Below are positions 31,696 to 48,212 of a stretch of DNA of 64,000 bases, one piece after another. The DNA comes from an uncultured delta proteobacterium (GTDB taxonomy: Bacteria; Desulfobacterota; Binatia; UBA9968), in contig CAWFJP010000029.1 in assembly GCA_963816145.1 (NCBI GenBank), positions 1 through 64,000 of the forward strand, in the 5' to 3' direction. Under the pieces are notes generated by a model that was not told where the DNA came from, did not search any database, and was given only the letters and a program-made list of their open reading frames with translations. The first letter of the stretch is position 1. The number at the start of each line of letters is the position of its first letter. A program made the position numbers and the translations under genes.

Positions 31696-34587
31696 TTATT
31701 TGAGTTGGTCGAGCAGTTCGTTCGCGGCTTTCAAATCCGGCGTGTCGAAGCCTTCGGTGAACCAGCCGTAGATTTGTGCCAGCATTCGTTTCGCTTCTTT
31801 TCCCTTGCCGGTTTTCTGCCACAGCCGACACAGGCTCATGGTGGCACGGAGTTCCAGAGACTTGGCTTTTTGGCTGCGTGCTAACACGATGGCGTTATTA
31901 AAGCGTTCTTGCTTCGCGGTTGTCCCGCCGGCGGCCTCGCCTTGGAGACGCCACAGCTCGGCATCATAGTAGGAATCTTTTGTGATCTTACTCAGCGCCA
32001 AGCCTCGATCGATGGCGGCGCGGGCCGCAGTGCGATTTTTCGCCAGCAACCATGCCTCCGTTTCAAATGCGTAGAACACGGGCTTGGAATTGTCCGCACC
32101 GGTAGCTTTCCACCGACTGACGCCTTCTCGTATCAGTTGCATTCCTAAGTCGAGATCGCCAAGCTTGCACTTGGCTGAACCCTTCAGGATCGTGGCTAAT
32201 GCAGTCCAATGGTCAAACCCGCTCTCACTGGCGACGTGCAGAGCCGAGTCACACCAATACAAGCTCGTTTGCGGATCGCCGCTGTAGGTGAAGTAGGTCG
32301 CGATCAAAGCATAAGTGAGCGCTTGATCGTAGGGCGTCGGATATTGACGAGCGAATTCACTCGCATTGTCGATTTCCACCAAGGCCCGGTCGGGAAAGCC
32401 CAAGAACCACAATGAATGGGCATTGTATGTACCGGCACCGAGCAATGGATTCCAACCGCAAATCGACGCGGCGGCTTCAGCGTGTTTGGCGTTACTCGAA
32501 GTTGCGACCTTCGCCAGATTGTGGTGCGCCTCATTAAAACGACCCAGATAAAAATCGGTGATGCCGACTGACATCGAGGCGATCATGTTAAATTCCAACG
32601 TCTTTGTTGCGTTTGGCAACAGTAACCATTTCGCTGCCCAAAGCGCGCGCCAGCGGCAGGTCGGCGTGAACCGTATGAAATAACCAAAGTCCAAAGAACG
32701 TTCGAAAAAGCAAGTGATCGTTGTCGTTTCGCGCGAAAGTTCACGAGCCTTCGAGAAGGCTGCTCTTGCCTCGGGTGCGGCGAACCCCTGTGAGTTTGCG
32801 TATGCGACACCGAGAAGGAGCTGAAAGCTAAGCTCGATATCGTTAACCGCCGCATCTTTCTTGAGGTGTCCGATCAGGGACAACCCCTTGGTGGCGTGAA
32901 TGATGGCTTCGTCATAGCCGCATTTCCCGTGGGCGATTTGCGCCGATGCCAACAGATACTTCACTGCCCGTGCGTAATCGCCGCCGTGCTCGAAATGCAA
33001 CGCCAGTTCGGCGGCGACCTGATCGGTCGCGCCAGCGTAGGCTGCTTCGGTTCGCGCCCCGATCGCTTGGTGCAGGCGTCTACGCCGCGCTTCATCGACC
33101 CGTTGGTAGACGACGTTTTGGTACAAAGCGTGGACGAAACTATAACGCGGTGTGCTCCGTGCCATTGGGCCTGGTGCGCAAACCCGAATATTGTAAAAAC
33201 TGACCGCGCCTGGCCAAGTCGCGATATTGACACTCGGCATGCTCTCGCGCTGCGTTCCAACACCGGCGCGATCATCGCGACCGAAAACGTCGTGCCGGCG
33301 ATGCTCGCCGTCTCTCAGAGTTCCTGGTCAGCCGGGGCAAGGGCATTGACCTGCCGGTCGATCAAATCCCTGATGGTTCCCGGCACTTTGTCCAATTCGC
33401 TGTTGTCGAGCAATTTCACCGCGCCGTTTTCCCGCACGATGGCGTCACGGTCGACCAGATAATCCGTCACATTGACCATGAACAGCGGATTGCCCTCCGA
33501 GCGGCGATACACCGCTGCGACAGAACCGGCTGCGCCACGGCAGTCAGTCTCAAAGCGCGCCGCGAGATATTCGCCGACGGCGGCTTGATTTAAAAGCTTG
33601 ATCGGTAAATGGGCACAATAGTTGTGCAGTTGCAGTTCGGTTTTGAGGTCTTTAAGCGGGTGGTTGAATTGTTCGACTTCATCTTCACGGTAAGTGCCGA
33701 TGATCATCAGCCGCGCCGCTTCGCGGCGGCGCGCCAGGTAAGCGATCAACGCCAGCGTCGAGGGGTCGAGCCAATGAAGATCTTCGACATACCAACAGGA
33801 CCGTTCGGGTTTTGGCGATCTCTTCTAGAAACGCGGCGATCTCGCGCAACCGGCGTTCGGGTGTCACGCCCAAGTTTTGGCGCGCCAGCTCGGCGCTCTC
33901 GTCGGCGCTGACTAGCCCAGGTAGACTTAGCAACCAACTCGGCGCCAGGCGGCGCAGAGCCGCGATCGCCACCGCCCCGTCGGGCAGCTTGCACAGCCGG
34001 TCCAACATATCGAGGATCGGCAAGTAGGCCTCGCCGGCGCCGTACTGCTCGATACATTGGCCTTGGGCGACGACGACGCCTTCGGCAAGCGCAGCGCGGA
34101 CAAACGTTTCCACCAGCGTCGTCTTGCCGATGCCGGCTTCGCCGGTGACGAAGACCATCTGCCGCCTGCCGCCGTGGGCTAGTTCCAAATGGCGCTGGAG
34201 CCCTGCCAGTTCGCTCTGCCGGCCGACGAAACGATTGAGCGACGATGACTCCGAGCCGTCGGAACCAATGATCCGAACCGGCGCGATGAAACGATAGCCG
34301 TCGCGTCCGACGGTGGCGATATATTGCGGTTTTACCGGACTGTCGCCCAGCGCCTTGCGCACCGTGCCGAGGGTTACCTTTAATGCCGCGTCATGGACGC
34401 TGGCGTTGTCCCATACATGGCGCAAAAGATCTCTTTTTGAAATGACCTGATTGGGATGTTGGGCGAGAAAGCAGAGCAGGCGAAAGGCCTTGCCGCGCAG
34501 CGCTATGCGCACGCCGTCGGCATAGAGTTCTGTCCCGACAAGATCGAGACTAAAAGGGCCGAAAATAAGTTGTTGATCGTTGGTCAC
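31696..34587 (-). pseudogene. Winged-HTH (OmpR/CadC) + AAA ATPase + TPR-like regulator, multiply disrupted
   Basis: FGPFSLD...YIATVGRDGYRF, FVGRQSEL, GEAGIGKT, EDLHW (frameshift ~33790), EGNPLF, in-frame TGA at 33315, further shifts near 33250-33150 and 32730-32590; C-terminal SLELRATMSL...WFTEGFDTPDL. Confidence 0.85.
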
Positions 34588-34987: not shown

Positions 34988-36220
34988 ATGCGATTAATCA
35001 AAATGGCTGGTACCGTTGGGCTAGCGTTGGCGCTGGCGGCTCATTTATGTGTGCCTGGTGCGTCCCATGCTACCGACGTCAAACTCACCAGTGATAGCCA
35101 CACTTCATCCAGCAAGTCCTCATTCAATTTCTCTCTCAATAGCAGCCTGAGCATTTCCAGCACCGAAAAAGGCTTTTTACAGTTCGATCTGACCGATCTC
35201 CCCGCGGGGGTGGGTAGCTCAGATGTCGAGCGAGCCAACGTAAAAATTTATGTCGCTAACTTGACTACCCCCGGAAGTTTCCAAATCTGCCCGGTAACCA
35301 GCGCTTGGAGCGAAGGGACCATTACGCATAACAATGCACCGGGTTTTAACTGCGCGATTGCGTCGGCAAACGGCTCGGTTGGATCCGGAGACCGTCAACA
35401 CTATATCACGGTCGACGTGACGAGCATCGTCAAGTACTGGTTGGATAACCCTGGATCGAATTATGGCGTTGCGCTGACATCAACGTCGTCTGCGAATTTT
35501 GCGATCGACAGCAAAGAAGGCCCCGACGGCCGGGATGCCAAACTTGACGTCTCGCTATTTGATACCGGCGCGCAAGGTCCAGCCGGACCCGCCGGGCCGC
35601 AAGGGCCGCAAGGTCCGCAAGGCCCGGCTGGCGCTGATGGAGCTACTGGAGCGCAAGGGCCGATCGGACCCACCGGACCGCAAGGACCACAAGGTCCGGC
35701 TGGCGCTGATGGCACTACTGGTCCCCAAGGGCCAACTGGAGCTACTGGTCCACAGGGGCCCAGCGGTTTCGGTAGGCTGGTGCTTAACCAGTCGTGGTCG
35801 CTTGGGACGGCTGTTTCTGCGGTTGGGACTGGCGAAGGCCGGTGGAAGAATGTTCTGTTGTCCGTATTGAATCCGGTTGAATATACCGTTAACGGCGGTC
35901 CTCTGCTTATAAATATGAATATTGTTCTGACTGGAGGAAGCACTGCGACCTGTCGTCCCATGATCGATGACCTATGGGCTGGCGACTATAGTGGACTCGT
36001 AAAATCCCCGAACGATCCTTTTTGGACCGAAGGAAATATAGCTGTCGGCGGGCTTGGCGGATCCCACAGCTGGAGCACAACACGGATCTATACTGGCATA
36101 CCCGCGGGAAATCACACATTTGAGATACAGTGCGCAACGGACTCCGGTGTTTTGCAGGTCAATCAAACGAGTGGTAGCAGCGTTACGTATTCTTATTGGA
36201 GCGTGATTGAGTTGCAGTGA
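34988..36220 (+). CDS. Exported DNRLRE(CBM96-like)-domain, collagen-repeat protein with C-terminal beta head
   Basis: Signal peptide; [32 protein letters not shown]...NYGVAL, SKE; about 22 Gly-X-Y triplets. Confidence 0.8.
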
Positions 36221-36573
36221 ACGGGACAATATTCCTGTGCTTCCAAAAGTCACGTCGGGTTGAATCATTTCGCAGCCTCGTAGGCCCAGTTGGTATGCAA
36301 TGGAATCCGGGATCGGATCGGGACTCGGATTTTCCTTGGATGCAGACGGTCTACGAGGCTTCGGTCCTTACGTGACGACACGCCCCATTTTAATCTCTAT
36401 GCGGCAATTTCGCGCAACTTGCTGCTATTGTTTGAACGATTAAATTCCGATTCAGTCGCTGATTAATCGGTGTGCGCGATCGCGTCAATTGTTGTGACTT
36501 GACGCGATCGAACCCTCCTCACGCCTTCCGCAGCGCGGCGATCTTAAATATTCGTCGAAAGCCTCAGACAAGA

Positions 36574-36595: not shown

Positions 36596-36977
36596 TTCGC
36601 GATTGAGCCCAGAGCGCCACTTATGCGAAGTGGGTGAAAATTTATCCGAATTTTTGTCTTGTTTTGTCGGAGAAGGGCTACATCAGGTGAGAATGCCGAG
36701 CTATCGGGTTTGGGTGACGAGCGCCAAGCAAGGTAATTCCACTTTCAATAGCGAGAAAATTACGGCGCTTCAGGCGAGATATGTGACGACCACGAATAGA
36801 ACGCACGAGGACCACATGCATCGTGGCGATCGACAACGCATCTTGGGTGACGATTCTGAGTTGCGGCGAAGGGGAGCTATGAAGATGGCAATCTATCAGA
36901 GCGAGTTTTTTCTCGGTGCGTTATTACCCTCTGCCCTACGTCTAGCAACCTAAACTGAAGCTTATCGGAGAAAAATA

Positions 36978-39900
36978 ATGACTAAACTCCGTCCGCTGGG
37001 ATCAGCACACAAAGCCGTGTTTTTATTAGCTTTGGTTTTTGTGACCGGCTTGAGTACGCCCCAGGTGGCACGAGCCGATGGTTGGCTACTCGGGTCTGGT
37101 ATGAGCACTGCTCGTTATTTACACACAGCGACGCTGCTGACGGATGGGCGAGTGCTGGTGACGGGTGGAACCACGGGCAATATCGCTATCGCTAGCGCGG
37201 AGATCTACGATCCAACGAGTAACAGTTGGACGCCAGGGAGTGGCGCCGGGTCAGTGCCGTCGATGAGTACGACCCGTTTTTTACACACAGCGACACTGCT
37301 GACGGACGGGCGAGTGCTAGTGACGGGCGGTTGCACATCGAGCTGCTCTACCGCCAGCGCGGAGATCTACGATCCGGCGAGTAACAGTTGGACGCCAGCG
37401 AGTGGCGCCGGGTCAGTGCCGTCGCTGAGTACGGCTCGTAATTCCCACACAGCGACACTGCTGACGGACGGGCGAGTGCTGGTGACGGGTGGACACACGG
37501 GTAGTGTCGTTACCGCCAGCGCGGAGATCTACGATCCAACGAGTAATAGTTGGACGCCAGGGAATGGCGCCGGGTTAGTGCCGTCGATGAGCACGGCTCG
37601 TTTACCACACAGCGACACTGCTGACGGACGGGCGAGTGCTGGTGACGGGCGGGTACACAGTTGAGCTGTGCTATACCGCCAGCGCGGAGATCTACGATCC
37701 GACGAGTAACAGCTGGACGCCAGGGAGTGGCGCCGGGTCAGTGCCGTCGATGAGCACGGGTCGTGTTTCCCACACAGCGACACTGCTGACGGACGGGCGA
37801 GTGCTGGTGACGGGTGGACACACGGGTAGTGTCGGTACCGCCAGCGCGGAGATCTACGATCCAACGAGTAACAGCTGGACGCCAGGGAGTGGCGCCGGGT
37901 CAGTGCCGTCGATGAGCACGGGTCGTGTTTCCCACACAGCGACACTGCTGACGGACGGGCGAGTGCTGGTGACGGGCGGACTCACGAGTAGTGGCGCTAT
38001 CGCCGGTGCGGAGATGTATGAACCAGATAATATTCTCATCGACCAGACCATCCTCGTAACGCAAAGCGCACCGACCAGCGCGGTGTATGGAACAATATTT
38101 AACGTCGCCGCGACGGGTGGCGGCTCCGGCAATGCCGTGGTCATCGCAGCCTCAGGCCCCTGCTCGGGTGGCGGTAATAGCTCCGCCTTCATTACTATGA
38201 CCAGCGGCACAGGTACTTGCACCGTAACCTTTAATCAAGCCGGTAACACCGCCTATCTGCCGGCGCCAACGGTGACACAGTCGGTAACAGCGCTCGCTGA
38301 CGACACACCGCCCGATACGACCATCACGTCTGCAGCGGCCAATCCCACCAGTAGTACCTCTGCGACTTTTAGCTTCACATCGACGGAGCCGACCGGTGCG
38401 ACTTTTCTTTGCAGTCTGGACAATGCGGATTACACAATTTGCACCAGCGGGATTTCCTACAGTGGATTGCTACCGGGAAGTCACATCTTTCGGGTGAGCG
38501 CCGTTGACGCTGCTGGCAACGTCGACCAGTCGCCCGCGAGTCACAATTGGACGATCAATGCACCGGACACCACACCGCCGGAAACAACGATCGCTTCCAA
38601 GCCATCTAGTGTGACTAACAAAACCAACGCAACTTTCACCTTCGCGTCCTCGGAGGCGGGTAGCACGTTCGTGTGTAGTCTCGACGGAGGTACGTTCACT
38701 GCTTGCATCAGCCCCCAGAACTACACAGGTCTGGCAAATGGCAACCACAGTTTTCAAGTGCAAGCGAGCGACTCGGCCGGTAATCCTGATCAGTCACCTG
38801 CTAGTTACAACTGGACGATTGATAACAGCTTAATAACCGTCTTACAGGGTACGATAACGGATCGGTCGACGGGTTTACCGATCGTTGGGGCGTCGGTGAC
38901 AATATACGGTCAGGGTAATGCCACGGTTAACACCGATAGTAACGGGGCATACTCGTTTACTGGCCAGCAGTATCCATTCACAGGTTCGGTCACTCTTGGT
39001 GTTACGGCCCGAGGGTATTTTGCGAGTATGACCTCGGTCAACATTGTTGCGCCGTTCCCGGTAACGGTCGATAAATCTCTGTTGCCTGGTGGGATAATTC
39101 TCGGGGGTACAGTGACCGATGCCGGCACAAACCAGCCGATCGCGAGTGTAGGCGTCTGCTATTCGGGAGGCCTTAATTTTTATGATCTCGATGGGTTCTC
39201 CGGTGGCAGTATACGTAGATGTGCAACAACGGATCTTTCGGGAAATTACTCTTTAGACAGTTCGGTACTTGTCGAGGCCGCCGCCACGGCGGGAGCAACG
39301 GGTCAGTTTACGGCAAGTGCAGCGGGTTACCTTAACCTCACTCAGAATGGGCTTCACATCGCACCACCATACCCAGTCACACAAAATATTGCCCTGACAT
39401 GGACAGGTTTAACAACTCAGACGACAGTCGCCACGGTTCCGGCGGGGCTCGTCATAACCGTCGACAATGTTAATTACATATCACCGCAAACATTCATATG
39501 GATTCCTGGTAGCGTTCATACAATTGCGACGACATCGCCTCAGGGAACATCTGGCACGCAAATCGTTTTCAATAACTGGAGTGACAACGGGGCAATTTCA
39601 CATACTCTTGCGGCACCAAGCACTAACAGCACGCTGACTGCAAATTTCACAACGCAATATCAGCTCTCCACATCCGCGAGTCCATCGTCCGGTGGATCCG
39701 TGACTGCTGGAGGACTGTTCAATCCGGGTGCGTCTGTGGTCATCACTGCGACGCCAGCTGCTGGATTCCACTTTACCGGATTCACGGGCGATCTTTCGGG
39801 TACGACCAATCCTCAGACGGTTGTCATGAATGGGCCGCGAAACGTGACCGCGACCTTTGCGCTGATCGTATTCCCGGATACGACTATCACCTCTGCTCCG

Positions 39901-41661
39901 CCTTCACAGACAAACAGTAGCAACGCGAGCTTTAGTTTCTCATCGACCGAGGTGCCGAGCACATTCGAGTGCAGCCTTGATGGCAGCGCGTTTGCGTCCT
40001 GTCTGAGTCCGGCGAGTTACGGACCGCTAGCGGATGGAAATCATACGTTCCAAGTCCGCGCGACGAATCAATTCGGAGACACTGATCCAACACCGGCGAG
40101 TTACACTTGGACGATCACGACAGGGGATATCACTCCGCCTGAAACAACCATCAGCGGGAGTCCGGCGGCGGTGACGACCGCGACCAGCGCGAGCTTTACG
40201 TTCACGTCGAGCGAACCGGGGAGCACGTTCCAATGCCGTTTGGATACGGCGGCGTTTGCAACCTGCACGAGTCCGCGGAACTTTACGGGACTGGCGGTTG
40301 GATCGCATATCTTCGAAGTGCGGGCCACGGATGCTGCCAACAATACCGATCCGTCCCCCGCAAGCTTCACCTGGGTAATCGACCGGACGGCGCCGAATAC
40401 GACGATCACGTCCGGCCCGTCGTCGCCGACCAATCAGACCAGTGCGACTTTCACCTTCGAGTCTAACGACGCGGGCAGCACCTTTCAGTGCCGCCTCGAT
40501 ACGCCGACCTGGACGCCGTGTACGAGTCCGATCAGCTACAGCGTATTGACGGCGGGCGGGCATACGTTCCGCGTGCGCGCCATCGACCCGGCGGGCAACA
40601 CCGACGGTAGTCCAGCGGTGTTTAGCTGGACGATCGATCTGACCGCGCCAAACACGACGATCACGAACCCTCGTCCGACGGATCCAAGCAACAGCACAAT
40701 CGCGACGTTTACCTTCACGGGGAGCGTGGCCAACAGCACGTTTGCATGCAGTCTGGATACTGCACCGTTTGCGCCGTGCTCATCGCCAGCGACATACAAC
40801 GGCTTGGCGGACGGCAGCCACAGTTTCCAGGTGCAGGCGACGGACCCGGCGGGCAATCCCGATCCGACTCCGGCGGTGTTCAACTGGACTGTGGACACCG
40901 TCGCGCCGGATACGGCGATCACGAGCGCCCCGCCGTCGTTATCGAACAGCGGCGGCGCGAGCTTTACCTTCAGCGCGAATGACACCGGAGCGACTTTCCA
41001 GTGCAGCCTGGACGGTGCAGCATTTACCAACTGCAATAGTCCGCGCAATTACACGGCACTCGTCAGTGGAGTGCACACTTTCCAAGTGCGGGCACGAGAC
41101 CTTGCGGGCAACGTCGATCCAAGTCCAGCGAGCTATGGCTGGACGGTGGACCGCACCGACCCGATCGCGACGATCACGTCGGGCCCGCCGACGCCGACTA
41201 ACGTGACGACGGCGACCTTCACGTTTGCCGCAGACGATCCGGCGGCGACTTTCGAGTGCCGCTTGGACGGAGCTGCCTTCGCGGCCTGCACGAGCCCAGT
41301 CAATTTCTCCGGCTTGGCCAACGGCAATCGCAACTTCCGCGTGCGCGCTACTGATGTGGCAGGAAACATTGGACCCGTAGCCCTCTACACATGGACCGTG
41401 GATACCACGCCGCCCAATACCAACATCACGGGAAATCCGGGCACGATAACGACCAGCGCCACGGCGACGTTCACATTCACGGCGAACCAGGCGGACAGCA
41501 CTTTTGAATGCAACGTCGATAATGCTGGGTTTACGAGCTGTTCGAGTCCGGCGACGTTCAATGGGTTCGCAGTCGGAACCCATAACTTCCAGGTGCGCGC
41601 CATCGACCCGGCGGGAAACACGGATGCTACGCCAGCGAACTTCAACTGGACGGTACAGTAA
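36978..41661 (+). CDS. Large exported protein: six kelch repeats, Ig-like repeats, carboxypeptidase-regulatory-like and B-repeat-like domains; split by a frameshift near 37603
   Basis: Signal peptide; R..HTATLLTDGRVLVTGG...SAEIYDP x6; nine PDTTI...TF.CSLD...HTF.VRA.D.AGN.D..PA...WT units. Confidence 0.85.
37101..38025 (+). repeat. Six coding tandem repeats of 162 bp (unit 4 is 163 bp, unit 6 partial)
   Basis: Unit starts at 37101, 37263, 37425, 37587, 37750 and 37912. Confidence 0.95.
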
Positions 41662-42415: not shown

Positions 42416-43981
42416 ATGAAACTCGGCAATTCGCTCGTTGTGCACTCTGTCGCCGCAATCTTAATTGCACTGGCTATGTTGGTATCAGTACCTGCCAACG
42501 CCGCCCCCATCCAATTGGGCTCAAATTCCATCAACATGTTTCGGGATACGCGGGGAGCTAATGATCTTGGCTTCAATCAGGGAGATCGATTCAATTTCGG
42601 TGCAAACGTTCTCGGCGGATCGGCAGGTACGACATTAGGGGCCGTCTATCCCCCCACTGGCTTCACGGTTTCCCAGTTCGCATGTGATCCGTTGGCCGTG
42701 AATCCGAATTTTTGTTCTCGTTCAACAGTCTTTGATCCCAACCGACTAGCGCAACCATGGACACTGATTTTTCAGAACGGTCCCGACGAGCTGCGCGTTT
42801 CTGGACCCGCGTTACTAGGAGTAAATGGAAATAGCATCTTGCAGCCAGTTCCGTTTCCCGTAGATGTGACCATCTCAGGCGCTGGTATAACGCCAACGAT
42901 ATCATGGACTGTACCCAACACTTTCGTGCCCGACGGGTTTCGGGTAAATATTTATGACAAAAGGGACCATCTGGGGCCGGATGGAAATCCGGACCTTATC
43001 CACAGCAAAGAGCTACCGAACACCGCCACGTCGTACACACTTCCCGAAGTTTTTGAGGATAGTGGATTTTCACTCGTAGTAGGAGGACTCTACACCATCG
43101 GATTTCAGTTAGTCGAAACCCGCAACCATGTTCCGTTTGTCAGAAACGCCGATATACTCCGCCGATCAAATTCCTTTTTTGCGTTCAGTCCGCTTCCTGG
43201 TTCGGCGCCGCCGAATGTTGCCTTACCGACAGTCGTGAATGGCGTTTACAACTTCAGCGTCACCCAGGTTGGTCCGAATGCCACCACCTTTATCGATCCG
43301 CCGGTGGCGGTCGGTTACGATTACGCCATCGGCCCTGGCAATCCCAATTTTAAATCGGTGCTCTTGCCAGAAGCTGGCGACAACATTTTTGACATCCATC
43401 TCTGGAATGGCATTGCGTATGCGTACCATGCAACCGTTGGCTCTGGTTTTGAGTACGTATTTCCTCCGGGCGGGGTAGATCGCTTTCGTGTATTAGGAAT
43501 AGAGGCCTCGGCCGGTCTGAGCCCAAGTAATGTGACCGCATTCATTACTGGTTTGAAGTTTGCATCAACAGGGCAGTTCACCGGCACGATGACGCCGATC
43601 GTAGCCGAGGCATTCTGCTCGAGCCTGGGTGACGATCCGAAACCATCTCTTCTGGACCAGGATATTTACACGGTACAGGCCATCCAAGGAGAAGATCTAC
43701 GCGTACGCTTGGAAAATATAAAAAATGAGAACACCGATAAGCGCGCTTCGCTCATTCTCCTAGACAATATCAGCCGCGTTAACCTCCTCAAAGTAGATAA
43801 CGGTAGCCTCCCAAATCAAGTGAACGCGGTTCTGCCGGCCACGGGCGAATACCTTATTGTCGTGGGTGAACAGCCCCTGATCGCGCGCGGAAATAGGTTT
43901 AGAGGCGACTACTGCCTGTCGGTTCAGTCATCCGCCGGAGCATCACAAACGCTTCAACCGACAGGATGGGTCGAACAATAG
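42416..43981 (+). CDS. Exported hypothetical protein with C-terminal PPC-like domain
   Basis: GGAGG RBS, signal peptide ending ANA-API; FIDPPVAVGYDY...FTGTMTPI block; DQDIY...LPATGEYLIVV. Confidence 0.7.
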   Translation: MKLGNSLVVHSVAAILIALAMLVSVPANAAPIQLGSNSINMFRDTRGANDLGFNQGDRFNFGANVLGGSAGTTLGAVYPPTGFTVSQFACDPLAVNPNFCSRSTVFDPNRLAQPWTLIFQNGPDELRVSGPALLGVNGNSILQPVPFPVDVTISGAGITPTISWTVPNTFVPDGFRVNIYDKRDHLGPDGNPDLIHSKELPNTATSYTLPEVFEDSGFSLVVGGLYTIGFQLVETRNHVPFVRNADILRRSNSFFAFSPLPGSAPPNVALPTVVNGVYNFSVTQVGPNATTFIDPPVAVGYDYAIGPGNPNFKSVLLPEAGDNIFDIHLWNGIAYAYHATVGSGFEYVFPPGGVDRFRVLGIEASAGLSPSNVTAFITGLKFASTGQFTGTMTPIVAEAFCSSLGDDPKPSLLDQDIYTVQAIQGEDLRVRLENIKNENTDKRASLILLDNISRVNLLKVDNGSLPNQVNAVLPATGEYLIVVGEQPLIARGNRFRGDYCLSVQSSAGASQTLQPTGWVEQ

Positions 43982-44395
43982 TGGACTGCGCCCCATTGAC
44001 TGGAGAGAAAAGGTAAGAATTTGAGGGAAGGTGCGATCGGCTCAAGCGGCGGGTAGGATAACTCGCCACGAGGAGTCGATCGATGGGAAAGCAGAGACGG
44101 AAATTTGAAGCGGGGTTCAAACAGCTGATCATCAGCGAAATCGAATCGGGGTTGCTGTCGGTCACCGCGGCCAGCCGTAAGTACCAACTCTCCGGTAGCG
44201 TAATCGATCGTTGGCGACGACAGGCCCGGCAAAGTGCTCTTGAGGCAGCACCGTCGGTCGTGAAAAGGCTTTGGAACGTGAGAACCGCGAGCTCAAGGAG
44301 AAACTGGCTGAGCTGTATCTGGAAAACGCCCAGCTAAAAAAACCCGGGGACTGGCTACGCCAGCGCAGAAGCGTCATACCTCCGTGATCACCGCC
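43982..44395 (+). mobile_element. IS3-family remnant: left end and frameshifted OrfA, no OrfB
   Basis: tggactgcgccccattgactggagag end; MGKQRRKFEAGFK...RW//EKALERENRELKEKLAELYLENAQLKK; A7 slippery run near 44336. Confidence 0.75.
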
Positions 44396-44463
44396 GTGGG
44401 TTGTCCGAAGGTAACGTAAAGAATGTCACCATCGGGATCGTAGGTGATGCGGATTGCTTTCAT
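44374..44463 (-). pseudogene. DUF2283-like N-terminal fragment truncated at the IS3 remnant
   Basis: MKAIRITYDPDGDILYVTFGQP. Confidence 0.6.
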
Positions 44464-44483
44464 CGATTTTCAAGAGAGAGAAA

Positions 44484-44855
44484 TCATCGCCGCCAATGAT
44501 TGAGAATGTGGACTTGGTATTCGATCGGTACGGCGGCGGCAACGAGGCTATCGATGGCGGAGACAATTTGCGCTCGGCTCATGTTCTTGCTCGCTTCTTT
44601 TTGCTCGTAAATGAGCAAGATACCCGAGTGCATGAGATGCGCGGCTTGCCAGTCCGAATGTAGTTCGAGGAAATCAGCGGGGTCTTTGGTCAGCAATGTT
44701 TGACGATTGCGCGCAGCAAATTCGAGATGTTGACGGTCTGAAGCGCCGACTGTTCCGGCCAGACGGGGAGTGGTTACGTCGTGGCCGGAGCGGCGCAGGA
44801 GAGCGATTAGCGTGTCATCGTCGGCACAATCGTCGAGGTAAAGCGACAGCGGCAT
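44484..44855 (-). CDS. DUF5615 PIN-like (VapC45-like) toxin
   Basis: LYLDDC, LRRSGHDV, GASD..HLEFA, LLTKD..DF, HSGI. Confidence 0.8.
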   Translation of the reverse strand: MPLSLYLDDCADDDTLIALLRRSGHDVTTPRLAGTVGASDRQHLEFAARNRQTLLTKDPADFLELHSDWQAAHLMHSGILLIYEQKEASKNMSRAQIVSAIDSLVAAAVPIEYQVHILNHWRR

Positions 44856-44860
44856 GGGCT

Positions 44861-45136
44861 CTAGAGATGACCACTCGCATGCAGCCTCCGGCCCTCTTCG
44901 TCGGTTTCACTGTCCACCAGGGTTTTATTGCGCCGGTAATAATCAAGCGCCTCAAGCACGGCTTGCACCGGCAAAGCGAAATTCTTCGCTGTCTGCTCGG
45001 GCGTTTCCCCTTCGCGCAGCATGGTCGCGAGCAGATGCCAAACATGCATGTTGCGCCCGCGAATCCAGAGAATTTTCCGCCATGCATGGGGGCGCGCTTC
45101 GAGATGGCTATACACGGGCTCGGCTTGGGCTTTCAT
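44861..45136 (-). CDS. DUF433-like antitoxin
   Basis: IRGRNMHVWHL...GETPEQTAKNFALP..AVLEALDYY. Confidence 0.75.
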   Translation of the reverse strand: MKAQAEPVYSHLEARPHAWRKILWIRGRNMHVWHLLATMLREGETPEQTAKNFALPVQAVLEALDYYRRNKTLVDSETDEEGRRLHASGHL

Positions 45137-45293
45137 AGTGCGAAATTTACCATGCCCAGCTTGAGACAGACAAGGGGAGCGCATCGGGGCTCGGATGATC
45201 TCTCGTAGCGCCGCGTTCGAGCGCCGCGAACCGCTTGAACGAGTATGGGGTATGTGTTCAGCCCACTTTTGATCGTGATGATGGATCACTGAG

Positions 45294-45617
45294 ATGGCGG
45301 AACCCGATCAAAGGACCCATCGCGTCATGAGCTTAAGTAACCGTAATCGTCGGTTTCTCTATTGCCACGATTGCAACGCCGTTCATCGCGTTACGCCGTT
45401 CGACTCGGCGCCGGTTTATGAGACAGACGGCGCGGAGCTTCGTGAAATTCCCCGGGACGACCGGCGCGATTTCTGCGACCGCCACGTCGGCCATGGGATG
45501 GGAGAACTTATCGCCATTGACGATCGGCGCCGTGAGCCTGACGGATTCGTTGAACCGATGACGGTCAACAAAATTTTATCCCGCGAAGTTTCAGGACCAG
45601 CATCGCTGAGCCGTTGA
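45294..45617 (+). CDS. Hypothetical CxxC protein, possibly a fragment
   Basis: LYCHDCNAVH...FCDRHVGH; C-terminus looks degenerate. Confidence 0.4.
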   Translation: MAEPDQRTHRVMSLSNRNRRFLYCHDCNAVHRVTPFDSAPVYETDGAELREIPRDDRRDFCDRHVGHGMGELIAIDDRRREPDGFVEPMTVNKILSREVSGPASLSR

Positions 45618-45845
45618 CCTATGAGGTGCTTCCCCGCCAATTGACGCTGTGGGAATTTGGCGCAGAATTGATGACGAAAGGCGGAACGACGGCTAATCGA
45701 GGTTCACGGCCGCGGTATCACAGCCCAGTCGCAAGAAAAAAAGCCCAGTCCCGAAGCTTTGAAACAGTCGAAATGGCGTTGTGAACTGACTTCATCGGTA
45801 AATTGGCCCAACCCATCGCCTTGTCGGCTGGTTGAATCGCCCATG

Positions 45846-45986
45846 CTAGCGCCGCCCGCGACTCAGCATCGCGGTCGGTGTGATCCAGTCTTCGATCCTG
45901 AAGCCCGCGTTCACTCTAAAATCGATGTCGCCGATGCGCCGCAGGGAAAGTCGTTGCCTGTGATAATCTTTCTGCAGGTCGATAAA
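45846..45986 (-). pseudogene. Diverged duplicate of the 3' end of the DUF1329 gene
   Basis: FIDLQKDYH...RIGDIDFRVNAGFRIEDWITPTAMLSRGRR* aligns with 46872-47012. Confidence 0.85.
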
Positions 45987-46155
45987 GTCCACAGGTGACA
46001 GGACTCCTCACTCGGGCCATTGGCCGTACCCTCTCGGAAATTCTCCGATGCTGTAATTTCGCTTAGTCATTGAGTTTCTTTAAAATCAGGCGGCGATCTA
46101 GGTATGTTCACCCGCTCGCCAGGGACGATTCGACCGGTCATGATTACGCGCCGAA

Positions 46156-46184
46156 TTGACAGGTGTTACCGGCTGGGGTAACGT
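46156..46184 (+). promoter_or_regulatory. Sigma70-like promoter overlapped by an inverted-repeat operator
   Basis: TTGACA-N17-TAACGT; gttacc-N6-ggtaac. Confidence 0.6.
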
Positions 46185-46194
46185 TATTTTGTAG

Positions 46195-46389
46195 ATGGGC
46201 AAGGTGCGGCGAGGAGGTTTGGTTTTTGTTTGGTGGAAGGGAGATCACCCACCGAGGCATGTGCATGTCTACCGAGACGGCAAGCTGTTACTAAAGTGGG
46301 ATCTCGACAACAGAAAGGCAATGAAAGGCAGCGCGACGAGACGTATAGTCAATTTGATTGACGGTCTCGAATCGGATGGAATCCTATGA
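46195..46389 (+). CDS. DUF4160-like putative toxin
   Basis: WKGDHPPRHVHVY. Confidence 0.7.
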   Translation: MGKVRRGGLVFVWWKGDHPPRHVHVYRDGKLLLKWDLDNRKAMKGSATRRIVNLIDGLESDGIL

Positions 46390-46853
46390 AAATCTATTCG
46401 GTGAAATTCAATAATAAGCGGAAAATGTTCGAGGCCAAGACTTCGTCTGCGAATTTTGCATTTCCCTATGTTAAATCCGATCCGGCGCCGACATCGGATA
46501 ATCCGGTCGCGCGAGTATCCGTCGATAAAGAGATCGGCGCCGAAGGATTTACCTACGAACTTGCGTCAGGTGACACTGGATCAATCCATATCGAACAGAT
46601 TCTGGAATATAATAACGATCCGAATTATCTCAGGGACCAGCTACTGTACAAATTAACTCTGGAGGCGCAAAAGAGGGTTGCCGAAACGCGGCTGTCCAAA
46701 CGCGAAATTATTCGCCGGCTCGGCACCTCGGCGACGCAGTTTTATCGCCTATTGGATCAAACTAATTACAGCAAGTCCGTCGATCAGCTTGTGTCCTTGC
46801 TCCAGGTTTTGGATTGCCAGGTCGATTTACTGGTAAGCGCCAAGAGCGCGTGA
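46386..46853 (+). CDS. Putative antitoxin with C-terminal HTH
   Basis: 4-bp overlap with upstream gene; LSKREIIRRLGTSATQFYRLLD. Confidence 0.7.
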   Translation: MKIYSVKFNNKRKMFEAKTSSANFAFPYVKSDPAPTSDNPVARVSVDKEIGAEGFTYELASGDTGSIHIEQILEYNNDPNYLRDQLLYKLTLEAQKRVAETRLSKREIIRRLGTSATQFYRLLDQTNYSKSVDQLVSLLQVLDCQVDLLVSAKSA

Positions 46854-46871
46854 TCGCGTCCCTGTCATAAT

Positions 46872-48212
46872 CTAACGCCTCCCTCGACTTAACATCGCGG
46901 TCGGTGTGGTCCAGTCTTCGATCCTAAAGCCCGCGTTCACTCTAAAATCGATGTCGCCGATGCGCAGCTGAGGGAAATAGTTGCTGTGATAGTCTTTTTG
47001 CACGTCGATGAACATTACCCCTGAAAGTTCTCGGGCGGTCGAGCCCATGTTGTCTGGAATGCCGGTATCCGTGAGAATGAAGACCAAAAATTTATAAAGC
47101 CTGCCTGCTCTGTCCCAGATGTCGGCGGTTTGTGCGCGACGGTAGATCGCGTCGATGTACATTCGCTTTCGACTATACGGCGATTCGGCGGGCGGAATGC
47201 CATCGACGATGAGCATCTCCGGTCGGAGCTCCCAAGTCGAACGGGGGAATTTATCGTTCGACTCGACGAAACTAAACGGATCGCGGTTACCCGCTGGCGC
47301 GAAGTGACCCTTGTTGGACGGCGACGGCGCCAGCATGGGCTTGCGCCCGACCAGTGTCCACTTCCAGGTAAGCAGAGGGTCGTTGTGCAATCCCAAGTCG
47401 CTGACAAATAGTGCCGAGTAAGGGCTCGCCGGCTCGAATCTTTGGGTTGACGGCACTCGACGCGTGCGCCGCAGCGCAGGAATGTAAAGATCCGTATCTG
47501 GCAGCCTCGTGTTGTCGTAGTAAATCGTACTGAGCGAGGCGAGGCCATAAACATCGAACGGTTTCAGAAACGTCAAGACCGCGCGGTAATGTTCGTCTTT
47601 ATAACCCTGGATGACCGGTTTCGGTTCCTTGGCGATCCGTCCCACGGTTTGCACGGCGACGACAAACGCAGTGCCCTCTCGCACCACTTCGCCGTGGCTG
47701 TCGATATTTTTTTCGCTGGCAATTTCTCGCACGTCGTCATAGCGCGTGAGATTGGATTTATGATTCCACATCGCCTCAAGGCCGCTCGTCGGCTCAGGAA
47801 ACGGATCGCCGCCGATCCACGGCTGGCCGTCGTTGCTCCAGAGCTGACCCTTCTCATCCAATACCGCCTTGCCTTTGTTGCGCAGCGTCGCTTGTACCCA
47901 ATAGGGAGCGATGATGGCGTCTGCGGCGGTTGCGGCTTCGGCAATTTTGATCTGGGCGCCGCGCGTGAGTTCGAGGAGAAGCCCTGCCGGGCTAAAGTCT
48001 TTGACTAAGTCGGCGTTGTCCTTGGAAATGATCATTCCCGGTTTGACTCGGCCGCTGGTAAATTTTTCAATTGACAAAACTTCGTCGGGATAAGCGGCGG
48101 CGATGCTTTTGCCGGTGCCAACTAAACTCAATGCCGGTTGCAATAATCCCGCGCCGGCCCAGGCGCCGGTTTTTTTGAGAAATTGTCGTCGCGACCATGA
48201 CGGACCGTTCAT
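46872..48212 (-). CDS. DUF1329 domain protein with Tat-like signal
   Basis: SRRQFLK; G.PFPEP..GLEAMWN, YIPALRRTRRV, WELRP, PYSRKRMYID, IWDRAGRLYK. Confidence 0.85.
   Translation of the reverse strand: MNGPSWSRRQFLKKTGAWAGAGLLQPALSLVGTGKSIAAAYPDEVLSIEKFTSGRVKPGMIISKDNADLVKDFSPAGLLLELTRGAQIKIAEAATAADAIIAPYWVQATLRNKGKAVLDEKGQLWSNDGQPWIGGDPFPEPTSGLEAMWNHKSNLTRYDDVREIASEKNIDSHGEVVREGTAFVVAVQTVGRIAKEPKPVIQGYKDEHYRAVLTFLKPFDVYGLASLSTIYYDNTRLPDTDLYIPALRRTRRVPSTQRFEPASPYSALFVSDLGLHNDPLLTWKWTLVGRKPMLAPSPSNKGHFAPAGNRDPFSFVESNDKFPRSTWELRPEMLIVDGIPPAESPYSRKRMYIDAIYRRAQTADIWDRAGRLYKFLVFILTDTGIPDNMGSTARELSGVMFIDVQKDYHSNYFPQLRIGDIDFRVNAGFRIEDWTTPTAMLSRGRR

Follow-up and report, generated by a model that had tools for sequence, protein, structure and literature searches.

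Loop-confined variation in a bacterial kelch repeat array probably reflects blade amplification, recombination and ordinary mutation

The subject of this report is a kelch repeat array on contig CAWFJP010000029.1 (C29) of assembly GCA_963816145.1, from an uncultured delta proteobacterium; "the window" denotes the whole stretch of that contig that was analyzed, 64,000 nucleotides in length. The array comprises six tandem kelch units that share a scaffold and differ sharply at a few loop codons. The original prediction, made from the letters of the window, ascribed these codons to a possible diversifying system, trans-acting or of unknown mechanism, and kept concerted evolution plus selection as a fallback. 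It is the fallback that the evidence favors. The array is probably a recently amplified six-bladed propeller in which blades recombine and loops diversify by ordinary mutation fixed by selection, with no dedicated mutator. C29 belongs to a 7.8-Mb assembly of 31 contigs with a completeness of 99.47% and a contamination of 6.72%.

Results

Six kelch units and their variable codons

Tandem Repeats Finder delineated the array with a period of 162 (37101-38015, 5.6 copies, 86% matches) and, over the same array, with a period of 325 (2.7 copies, 90% matches). The six kelch units of 162 bp that had been described are all present, save that unit 4 measures 163 bp (Table 1). In the product of the first open reading frame (ORF), the Pfam model Kelch_1 (PF01344) scored 102.5 bits against a curated cut-off of 20.1 (E 7.9e-30) and Kelch_4 scored 99 bits (E 1.4e-28); the corresponding scores in the second ORF were 65.7 and 70 bits. 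Among PDB entries, the designed propeller SAKe6FE (8pjw) was the closest kelch match (E 1.6e-45), with KLHL20 at E 6e-30 and Keap1 at E about 1e-15. With a signal-like start ahead of the array and Big_13, Y_Y_Y and OmpL47 matches behind it, the exported kelch propeller on an Ig-like stalk that was proposed earlier holds up. Judged from its sequence, the array is predicted to fold into a kelch propeller of six blades that forms the head of a secreted protein, mounted on an Ig-like stalk, and the propeller would have a binding function.

We called a codon hypervariable when it encodes at least three residues among the units. Eight codons per blade qualify (4, 6, 7, 24, 26, 27, 28 and 29), and their offsets, given for unit 1 in Table 1, repeat at 162-bp steps through the array. 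The lists given with the original prediction for four of these codons were exact on recheck: from unit 1 to unit 6, codon 6 reads TAT/TTT/AAT/--T/GTT/GTT, codon 24 reads ACC/TGC/CAC/TAC/CAC/CTC, codon 28 reads ATC/TGC/GTC/TGC/GTC/GGC, and codon 29 reads GCT/TCT/GTT/TAT/GGT/GCT. The NNY pattern drawn from them, in which positions 1-2 vary before a fixed pyrimidine, is real at these four codons and fails at codons 4, 7, 26 and 27, where the third base also varies, so it describes 4 of the 8 hypervariable codons only. The companion statement that the units are nearly identical at silent sites was too strong. Silent differences occur in 13 of 36 conserved-residue columns (12 with two states and one with three), and 8 of 28 four-fold sites vary, with a pairwise diversity (pi) of 0.14, which is moderate variation. 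Neighboring silent adenines are unchanged across the units.

Within the eight codons, pi was 0.57 at positions 1-2 and 0.26 at third positions; elsewhere, four-fold silent sites had a value of 0.14 and positions 1-2 a value of 0.028. Counted as minimum changes, positions 1-2 of the eight codons carry 25 changes at 16 sites, compared with 9 changes at 28 four-fold sites (P 1.2e-5), or about five times more changes per site. Because these codons were picked after the data had been seen, we also ran simulations under a liberal null, letting all 54 codons change as fast as silent sites do, and scored the eight most changed codons. In 200,000 runs, this null reached 25 changes in 0.086% (P 0.00086). 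The excess of change at positions 1-2 of the eight loop codons is thus beyond chance.

Four of the variable columns hold one third base in all units. All units have T as the third base of codons 6 and 29, against the preference of the long ORFs of this genome for C (GTC 71%, GCC 77%, GGC 76%), and the loop codons therefore share a young ancestor with the scaffold. Loop codons with fixed third bases look inherited, not like old sequence that escaped homogenization.

Signs of amplification and exchange between blades

The period of 325 matches better than that of 162, and odd and even units alternate in their silent states at codons 22, 25 and 39. Together, these two features point to amplification by pairs of blades, and the array may have arisen by tandem duplication of a two-blade unit. 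Segments would also have been exchanged between blades by recombination within the array. All four combinations of states are found in 6 of 66 silent-site pairs, a result that recurrent mutation could also give with six units. Unit 6 is a mosaic: its codons 1-23 equal those of unit 5 save for one silent base, and its loops differ. These observations, along with an independent contig in which unit 4 carries the loop of units 3 and 5 (see below), argue for blade exchange. Such recombination would keep the scaffolds of the blades similar, silent sites included. In the D-A and B-C loops, divergence would come from small indels and point mutations of the ordinary kind, and diversifying selection for specificity in binding is the most likely force to have fixed them.

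Position of the variable residues

Blades 4-6 of the window array, folded alone from a single sequence, gave an unusable model (predicted local distance difference test, pLDDT, 46.6). For a seven-blade homologue (L025:2962-3984), an alignment of 35 propellers served as input, and the resulting model had a pLDDT of 96.9, a predicted template modeling score (pTM) of 0.93 and four strands per blade, in which strand A spans columns 9-12, strand B columns 18-21, strand C columns 33-37 and strand D columns 42-45. Mapping the variable residues on a structural model had been proposed as a check of the original prediction; on the homologue model, codons 4, 6 and 7 map to where the D-A loop ends, and codons 24-29 map to the B-C loop. 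From the topology of a four-stranded antiparallel meander, both loops would lie on the same face of the propeller. The same two loops form the ligand pocket of Keap1 (PMC12314335).

Homologous arrays in many phyla

The family to which the array belongs is large, with 7795 of 8000 scored candidates at E <=0.001. The best 120 longer proteins listed are 38-57% identical to the query, and among the listed proteins of similar length, apart from the window's own 228-residue ORF, none of the other 119 is above 56% identity. We fetched the loci of the best 80 of 265 relatives, one genome per species; searched with a profile of units 1, 2, 3 and 5, they yielded 879 blades in 100 ORFs. Most of the homologous arrays (L025-L104) have 7, 14 or 21 blades of about 48 residues each. 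In the window array, the six blades measure 54 residues each, and the D-A loop is longer by the six residues GAGSVP.

Arrays with at least five blades, 88 in number from 77 loci, were used for comparison; they come from Chloroflexota, Myxococcota, Gammaproteobacteria, Verrucomicrobiota, Elusimicrobiota, Acidobacteriota and others. In all 88, profile columns 6, 7 and 24-29 exceed the other columns in variation at positions 1-2. Silent diversity in these arrays forms a continuum from 0.15 to 0.79; the window array, at 0.14, is the lowest and the youngest of the 89 compared. Five other arrays are young by a silent diversity of <=0.25. Their loop positions 1-2 are near saturation (0.52-0.69), their loop third positions (0.30-0.56) lie above the silent background in five of five, and their loop codons include CAA, GAA, CGG and GGG, with no NNY rule. 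Normal third-position variation in homologous arrays was the original prediction's own criterion, and its presence in all five young arrays therefore weighs against codon targeting. Old arrays show loop saturation at every position.

Searches for closer relatives at the DNA level covered 40 related genomes, with no match to the array DNA in any of the 40, and metagenome contigs, with no match to the exact pattern of a 44-base scaffold core. A scan with a 20-base scaffold word returned 122 stretches, from which 80 loci were fetched; no close relatives were among them, unit 5 being matched at best at 71% over 107 bases or at 85% over 46.

Selection or drift in the loops

The main rival to our interpretation keeps the amplification and the recombination and drops positive selection: unconstrained loops would drift, and mismatches would confine conversion tracts to the scaffold. 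Such drift would account for loop third positions that are more diverse than scaffold silent sites, both in the five other young arrays and in the window (pi 0.26 versus 0.14; 6 changes at 8 sites versus 9 at 28, P 0.094), and for the saturation of old loops at all positions. Old drifting loops would not be expected to keep one third base in four variable columns, against the codon preference of the genome, and inside the eight codons positions 1-2 carry about twice as many changes per site as position 3 (1.56 versus 0.75). On balance, we consider drift without selection rather unlikely, albeit a reading to be taken seriously.

Several points weigh against the combination of recombination and selection that we prefer. 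Inside the eight codons, the difference between positions 1-2 (25 changes at 16 sites) and position 3 (6 at 8) is not significant (P 0.068), which also speaks for drift. Positive selection is not proven, and unconstrained loops that escape homogenization are a possible alternative. The eight codons were chosen post hoc from only six units, and minimum-change counts underestimate the real changes. Codon bias may lower the silent diversity of three of the five young arrays, those from Sorangium, Corallococcus and Pseudoduganella, genera that we take to be G+C-rich. Finally, the gene as assembled is broken, and the single independent contig that crosses unit 4 differs from the window exactly at variable codons, as ongoing diversification predicts.

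Search for a diversifying machine

A DIVERSIFYING machine was sought in the 7.8-Mb genome, where neither a reverse transcriptase (RT) of the diversity-generating retroelement (DGR) type nor a template copy of the unit was found. A DGR acting in trans would write into the six blades by adenine-specific copying from an AAY template repeat. It is suggested by the four NNY variable codons, which cannot become stop codons, and by the presence in the genome of three RTs (RVT_1 matches) and ten genes for four-helix-bundle proteins (TIGR02436), a family that presumably includes Avd. All three RTs pass the model for group II intron RTs and maturases (TIGR04416; 354.8, 358.4 and 318.4 bits against a cut-off of 300), and none in the genome belongs to the DGR clade. 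The TIGR02436 genes lie on C5, C11, C15, C30 and C31 (L105-L112); there is none on C29 and none within <=100 kb of the RTs on C11 or C31.

A DNA search of the assembly with unit 5, at E up to 10, recovered the six copies in the array (85-100% identity) and, beyond it, nothing but 11 short stretches (15-27 bases, E above 1). With no extra copy of the unit, there is therefore no template repeat and no silent donor cassette. None of the six units carries adenines throughout the variable sites, and the unchanged silent adenines and the variable codons that break NNY (4 of 8) add to the case against adenine-specific copying. No inverted repeat was found 3' of the array (two lie upstream, at 36271-36363 and 36477-36510), and Rfam gave 0 matches over the whole window. 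No candidate enzyme stands among the neighboring genes, which encode a CBM96-collagen-repeat protein, a split regulator, a product with a weak DUF3108-like match, and transport and metabolic proteins. A DGR in trans is refuted as far as this 99.5%-complete assembly allows, and we assign it a probability close to nil; a search for an RT, Avd and a noncoding AAY copy had been suggested with the original prediction. More broadly, a dedicated diversifying system is disfavored by these results, by the third-position variation in the other young arrays and by the constancy of unit 1 among metagenome contigs described below.

Silent donor cassettes of the kind used in antigenic variation were rejected as well: the other kelch genes of the genome, on C11, C14 and C30, share no DNA with the unit. 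Ten free-standing TIGR02436 genes are many for one genome. One of the three RTs (L003:1459-2526, on G000:C11) is a 355-residue protein whose match to the intron RT model ends at position 271 of 353 and which has no Pfam maturase domain; it lies between response-regulator genes and may be a truncated intron copy.

Metagenome contigs and the frameshift in blade 4

Independent sequence came from four soil metagenome runs of one study, which may include the source sample of the assembly. None of the public runs contained >27% of the sampled words; all are contigs, at a depth of about 3, and most of units 2, 3, 5 and 6 was uncovered. Unit 1 is identical in the three contigs that cover it (runs X1, X2 and X4), and the flanks at 36900-37275 and 37981-38300 show 0 differences from independent contigs.

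In the window, unit 4 lacks two bases between 37601 and 37602 (codon 6) and has three extra bases in the post-GG loop at 37660-37674; the resulting frameshift runs into a TGA stop at 37662-37664. The gene is therefore split into the ORFs 36978-37664 and 37636-41661. The deposited gene call is the 228-residue product, the single close match in the protein database. For annotation, the 228-residue and 1341-residue products are best treated as the halves of a single secreted protein, about 1560 residues long.

In a contig from run X2 (151 bases, depth 2.5) that crosses unit 4, codon 6 is intact (GCT) and the loop sequence is GGT AGT GTC TAT in place of the window's GTT GAG CTG TGC TAT; the rest agrees with the window. 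Units 3 and 5 have this X2 loop at their codons 26-28. This contig would be explained either by strain variation that arose through blade exchange or by an assembly error in unit 4, and the frameshift has about equal chances of marking a very recent pseudogene or a local assembly error. A phase-variation switch was ruled out, since no simple-sequence tract stands at the frameshift. Read-through of the frameshift by a four-letter step was dropped; all candidate words are present in frame in other units too.

The post-GG loops of units 2 (37330-37345) and 4 (37657-37674) have the hexamer GAGCTG in common, in different frames (TCG AGC TGC versus GTT GAG CTG TGC). Small indels rather than substitutions seem to connect these loops.

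Mis-assembly or mis-polishing of the near-identical units could in principle make part of the variability, and the frameshift, unreal. Unit 4 does disagree with the sole independent contig across it, and the neighboring regulator gene is likewise broken up among three frames. However, independent contigs match unit 1 and the flanks, the differences among units are codon-structured substitutions and not random indels, five of six checked neighboring ORFs have ordinary Pfam matches with no sign of splitting, and the same columns vary in the 88 other arrays. We consider an artefact of this extent improbable.

The same contig bears on a different idea, in which an unknown loop-targeted process without a reverse transcriptase, such as error-prone repair or templated micro-conversion between blades, alters the loops. 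The window and X2 versions of unit 4 differ only at codon 6 and in the post-GG loop, and the other approximately 130 bases agree; the difference consists of one substitution and three single-base indels within 10 bases of the loop, plus two bases at codon 6. The out-of-frame hexamer of units 2 and 4 and the near-saturated loop codons of every young array examined would also fit. In a stronger form, young kelch loops would be rewritten faster than by point mutation with the scaffold spared, and the cluster in blade 4 (one substitution and five indel bases) would be a trace of it. Neither form is at all likely, in our estimate. There is no candidate enzyme beside the gene and no donor copy of the unit in the genome, unit 1 did not change among three samples, and the difference in unit 4 may be an assembly error or strain variation at a depth of 2.5. 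The pattern occurs in many phyla, among which no search for a shared accessory gene was made.

Discussion

The array belongs to a known class of repetitive propellers, and its two-blade unit, 54-residue blade and six blades are small variations within that class. Highly repetitive propellers are defined in PMC9218822 (Pereira and Lupas 2022) by a median pairwise blade identity >60% over >=2 consecutive blades; among units 1, 2, 3 and 5, the median identity is 0.82 for amino acids and 0.86 for nucleotides, above the 0.60 threshold. The low synonymous divergence of young propellers is seen here too (pi 0.14 at 28 four-fold sites). The same paper reports that highly repetitive propellers, including those of the Kelch superfamily, have more nonsynonymous than synonymous changes, and that frameshifts interrupt some repetitive propellers, a kelch-like one from a Verrucomicrobia bacterium among them. 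Our array resembles these propellers in lying near a protein terminus and in its frameshift; theirs were amplified from single blades, with one two-blade case, whereas the unit here appears to be two blades.

The HNWD family of Podospora anserina (het-d and het-e as well as het-r) offers a close parallel outside bacteria. Its WD40 repeats undergo concerted evolution, with four selected codons per repeat on the interaction surface (PMC1805685, PMC2873952). The likeness lies in the high nucleotide identity and in the few codons that vary in each repeat, with their residues grouped on what would here be the binding side of the propeller; the differences are the WD40 fold and the setting in intracellular fungal proteins that resemble NOD-like receptors. 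In the fungus, exchange among ten paralogous genes and repeat-induced point mutation add to the mutation supply, whereas the genome studied here has one array of the unit.

Keap1, the KLHL proteins and SAKe6 share the six-bladed kelch propeller with the window array, and the Keap1 pocket uses the same D-A and B-C loops. Keap1 and the KLHL proteins are intracellular eukaryotic adaptors with differentiated blades, and SAKe6 is a designed protein with identical blades; the array described here would be the head of a secreted bacterial protein.

The DGR of the Bordetella phage BPP-1 reportedly combines a constant scaffold with a few variable codons. The array has such a scaffold, few variable codons and some NNY codons, but it differs from a DGR of this type in having no DGR RT, template repeat, adjacent accessory gene or adenine-specific pattern. 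To our knowledge, kelch is not a known target fold of DGRs, and a literature search judged by titles found no link between DGRs and kelch targets.

We regard the array as a clean bacterial kelch example of the cycle of propeller amplification, loop differentiation and decay. A scaffold frozen even at silent sites, set beside near-saturated loop codons, can imitate a programmed diversity generator. A targeted mechanism would be important if true; nothing here calls for one.

Gene layout and neighboring loci

The coordinates of the kelch gene and of the split regulator are collected in Table 1. The basic start, hydrophobic core and AxA ending of the N terminus suggest a Sec signal. The strand that follows probably closes blade 6, and the residues ahead of the first blade form a strand in the homologue model. 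The stalk, of about 1200 residues, has matches to Big_13, Y_Y_Y, an OmpL47-type barrel, CarboxypepD_reg and the InlB B-repeat.

Table 1. Features of the kelch gene and the neighboring regulator, in window positions.
Feature	Position	Strand	Remarks
Kelch gene	36978-41661	+	single long gene: N terminus, kelch head, Ig-like stalk
Start codon and putative signal peptide	36978-37076	+	33 residues ending ARA, from translation
N-terminal strand DGWLLGSG	37077-37100	+	resembles last blade strand NSWTPGSG
Kelch blade unit 1	37101-37262	+	162 bp
Unit 1 hypervariable codons	4 (37110-37112), 6-7 (37116-37121), 24 (37170-37172), 26-29 (37176-37187)	+
Kelch blade unit 2	37263-37424	+	loop CTSSCST; most divergent of the units
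Kelch blade unit 3	37425-37586	+	94% identity with unit 5
Kelch blade unit 4	37587-37749	+	163 bp; frameshifted
Kelch blade unit 5	37750-37911	+
Kelch blade unit 6	37912-38025	+	ends early, past strand C (AEMYEP)
Stalk	38026-41661	+	repeated Ig-like and beta-barrel domains, to the stop codon
ORF 1 as assembled	36978-37664	+	228 residues: signal, blades 1-3, out-of-frame tail
ORF 2 as assembled	37636-41661	+	1341 residues, frame +1: blades 4-6 and stalk; without its own signal peptide
Split regulator ORFs	34587-33685, 33749-33315, 33240-31696	-	frames 1, 2, 1

The regulator at 31696-34587, on the minus strand, has its winged helix (Trans_reg_C), AAA_16 and TPR domains spread over three ORFs; its homologues in three relatives (G018, G012 and G023) are single open frames of 731-932 residues. 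It is either a second broken gene beside the kelch gene or the result of further assembly indels. Among the six other neighboring ORFs checked, the five with ordinary Pfam matches include one matched across nearly the whole model, and the sixth has no match.

Downstream, the window has a stretch of about 2.9 kb (43981-46872) in which the longest ORF encodes 170 residues and none reaches >=200; it is flanked by a 521-residue ORF without a Pfam match and by a DUF1329/DUF1302/MMPL gene group. The gene directly upstream of the kelch gene (34988-36220, plus strand) specifies a protein in which collagen triple-helix repeats follow a CBM96 carbohydrate-binding module; the product is likely another secreted binding protein.

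A paralogue of the stalk lies elsewhere in the genome, on G000:C13 at about 198.4-200.9 kb (L113:9382-11940). This 852-residue protein is 88% identical to the kelch protein over the last 600 stalk residues, and is without a kelch head; its gene and three other large genes with Ig-like repeats stand in a row (518, 1033, 1231 and 852 residues, the last being the paralogue). The stalk looks like a common module on which heads can be exchanged.

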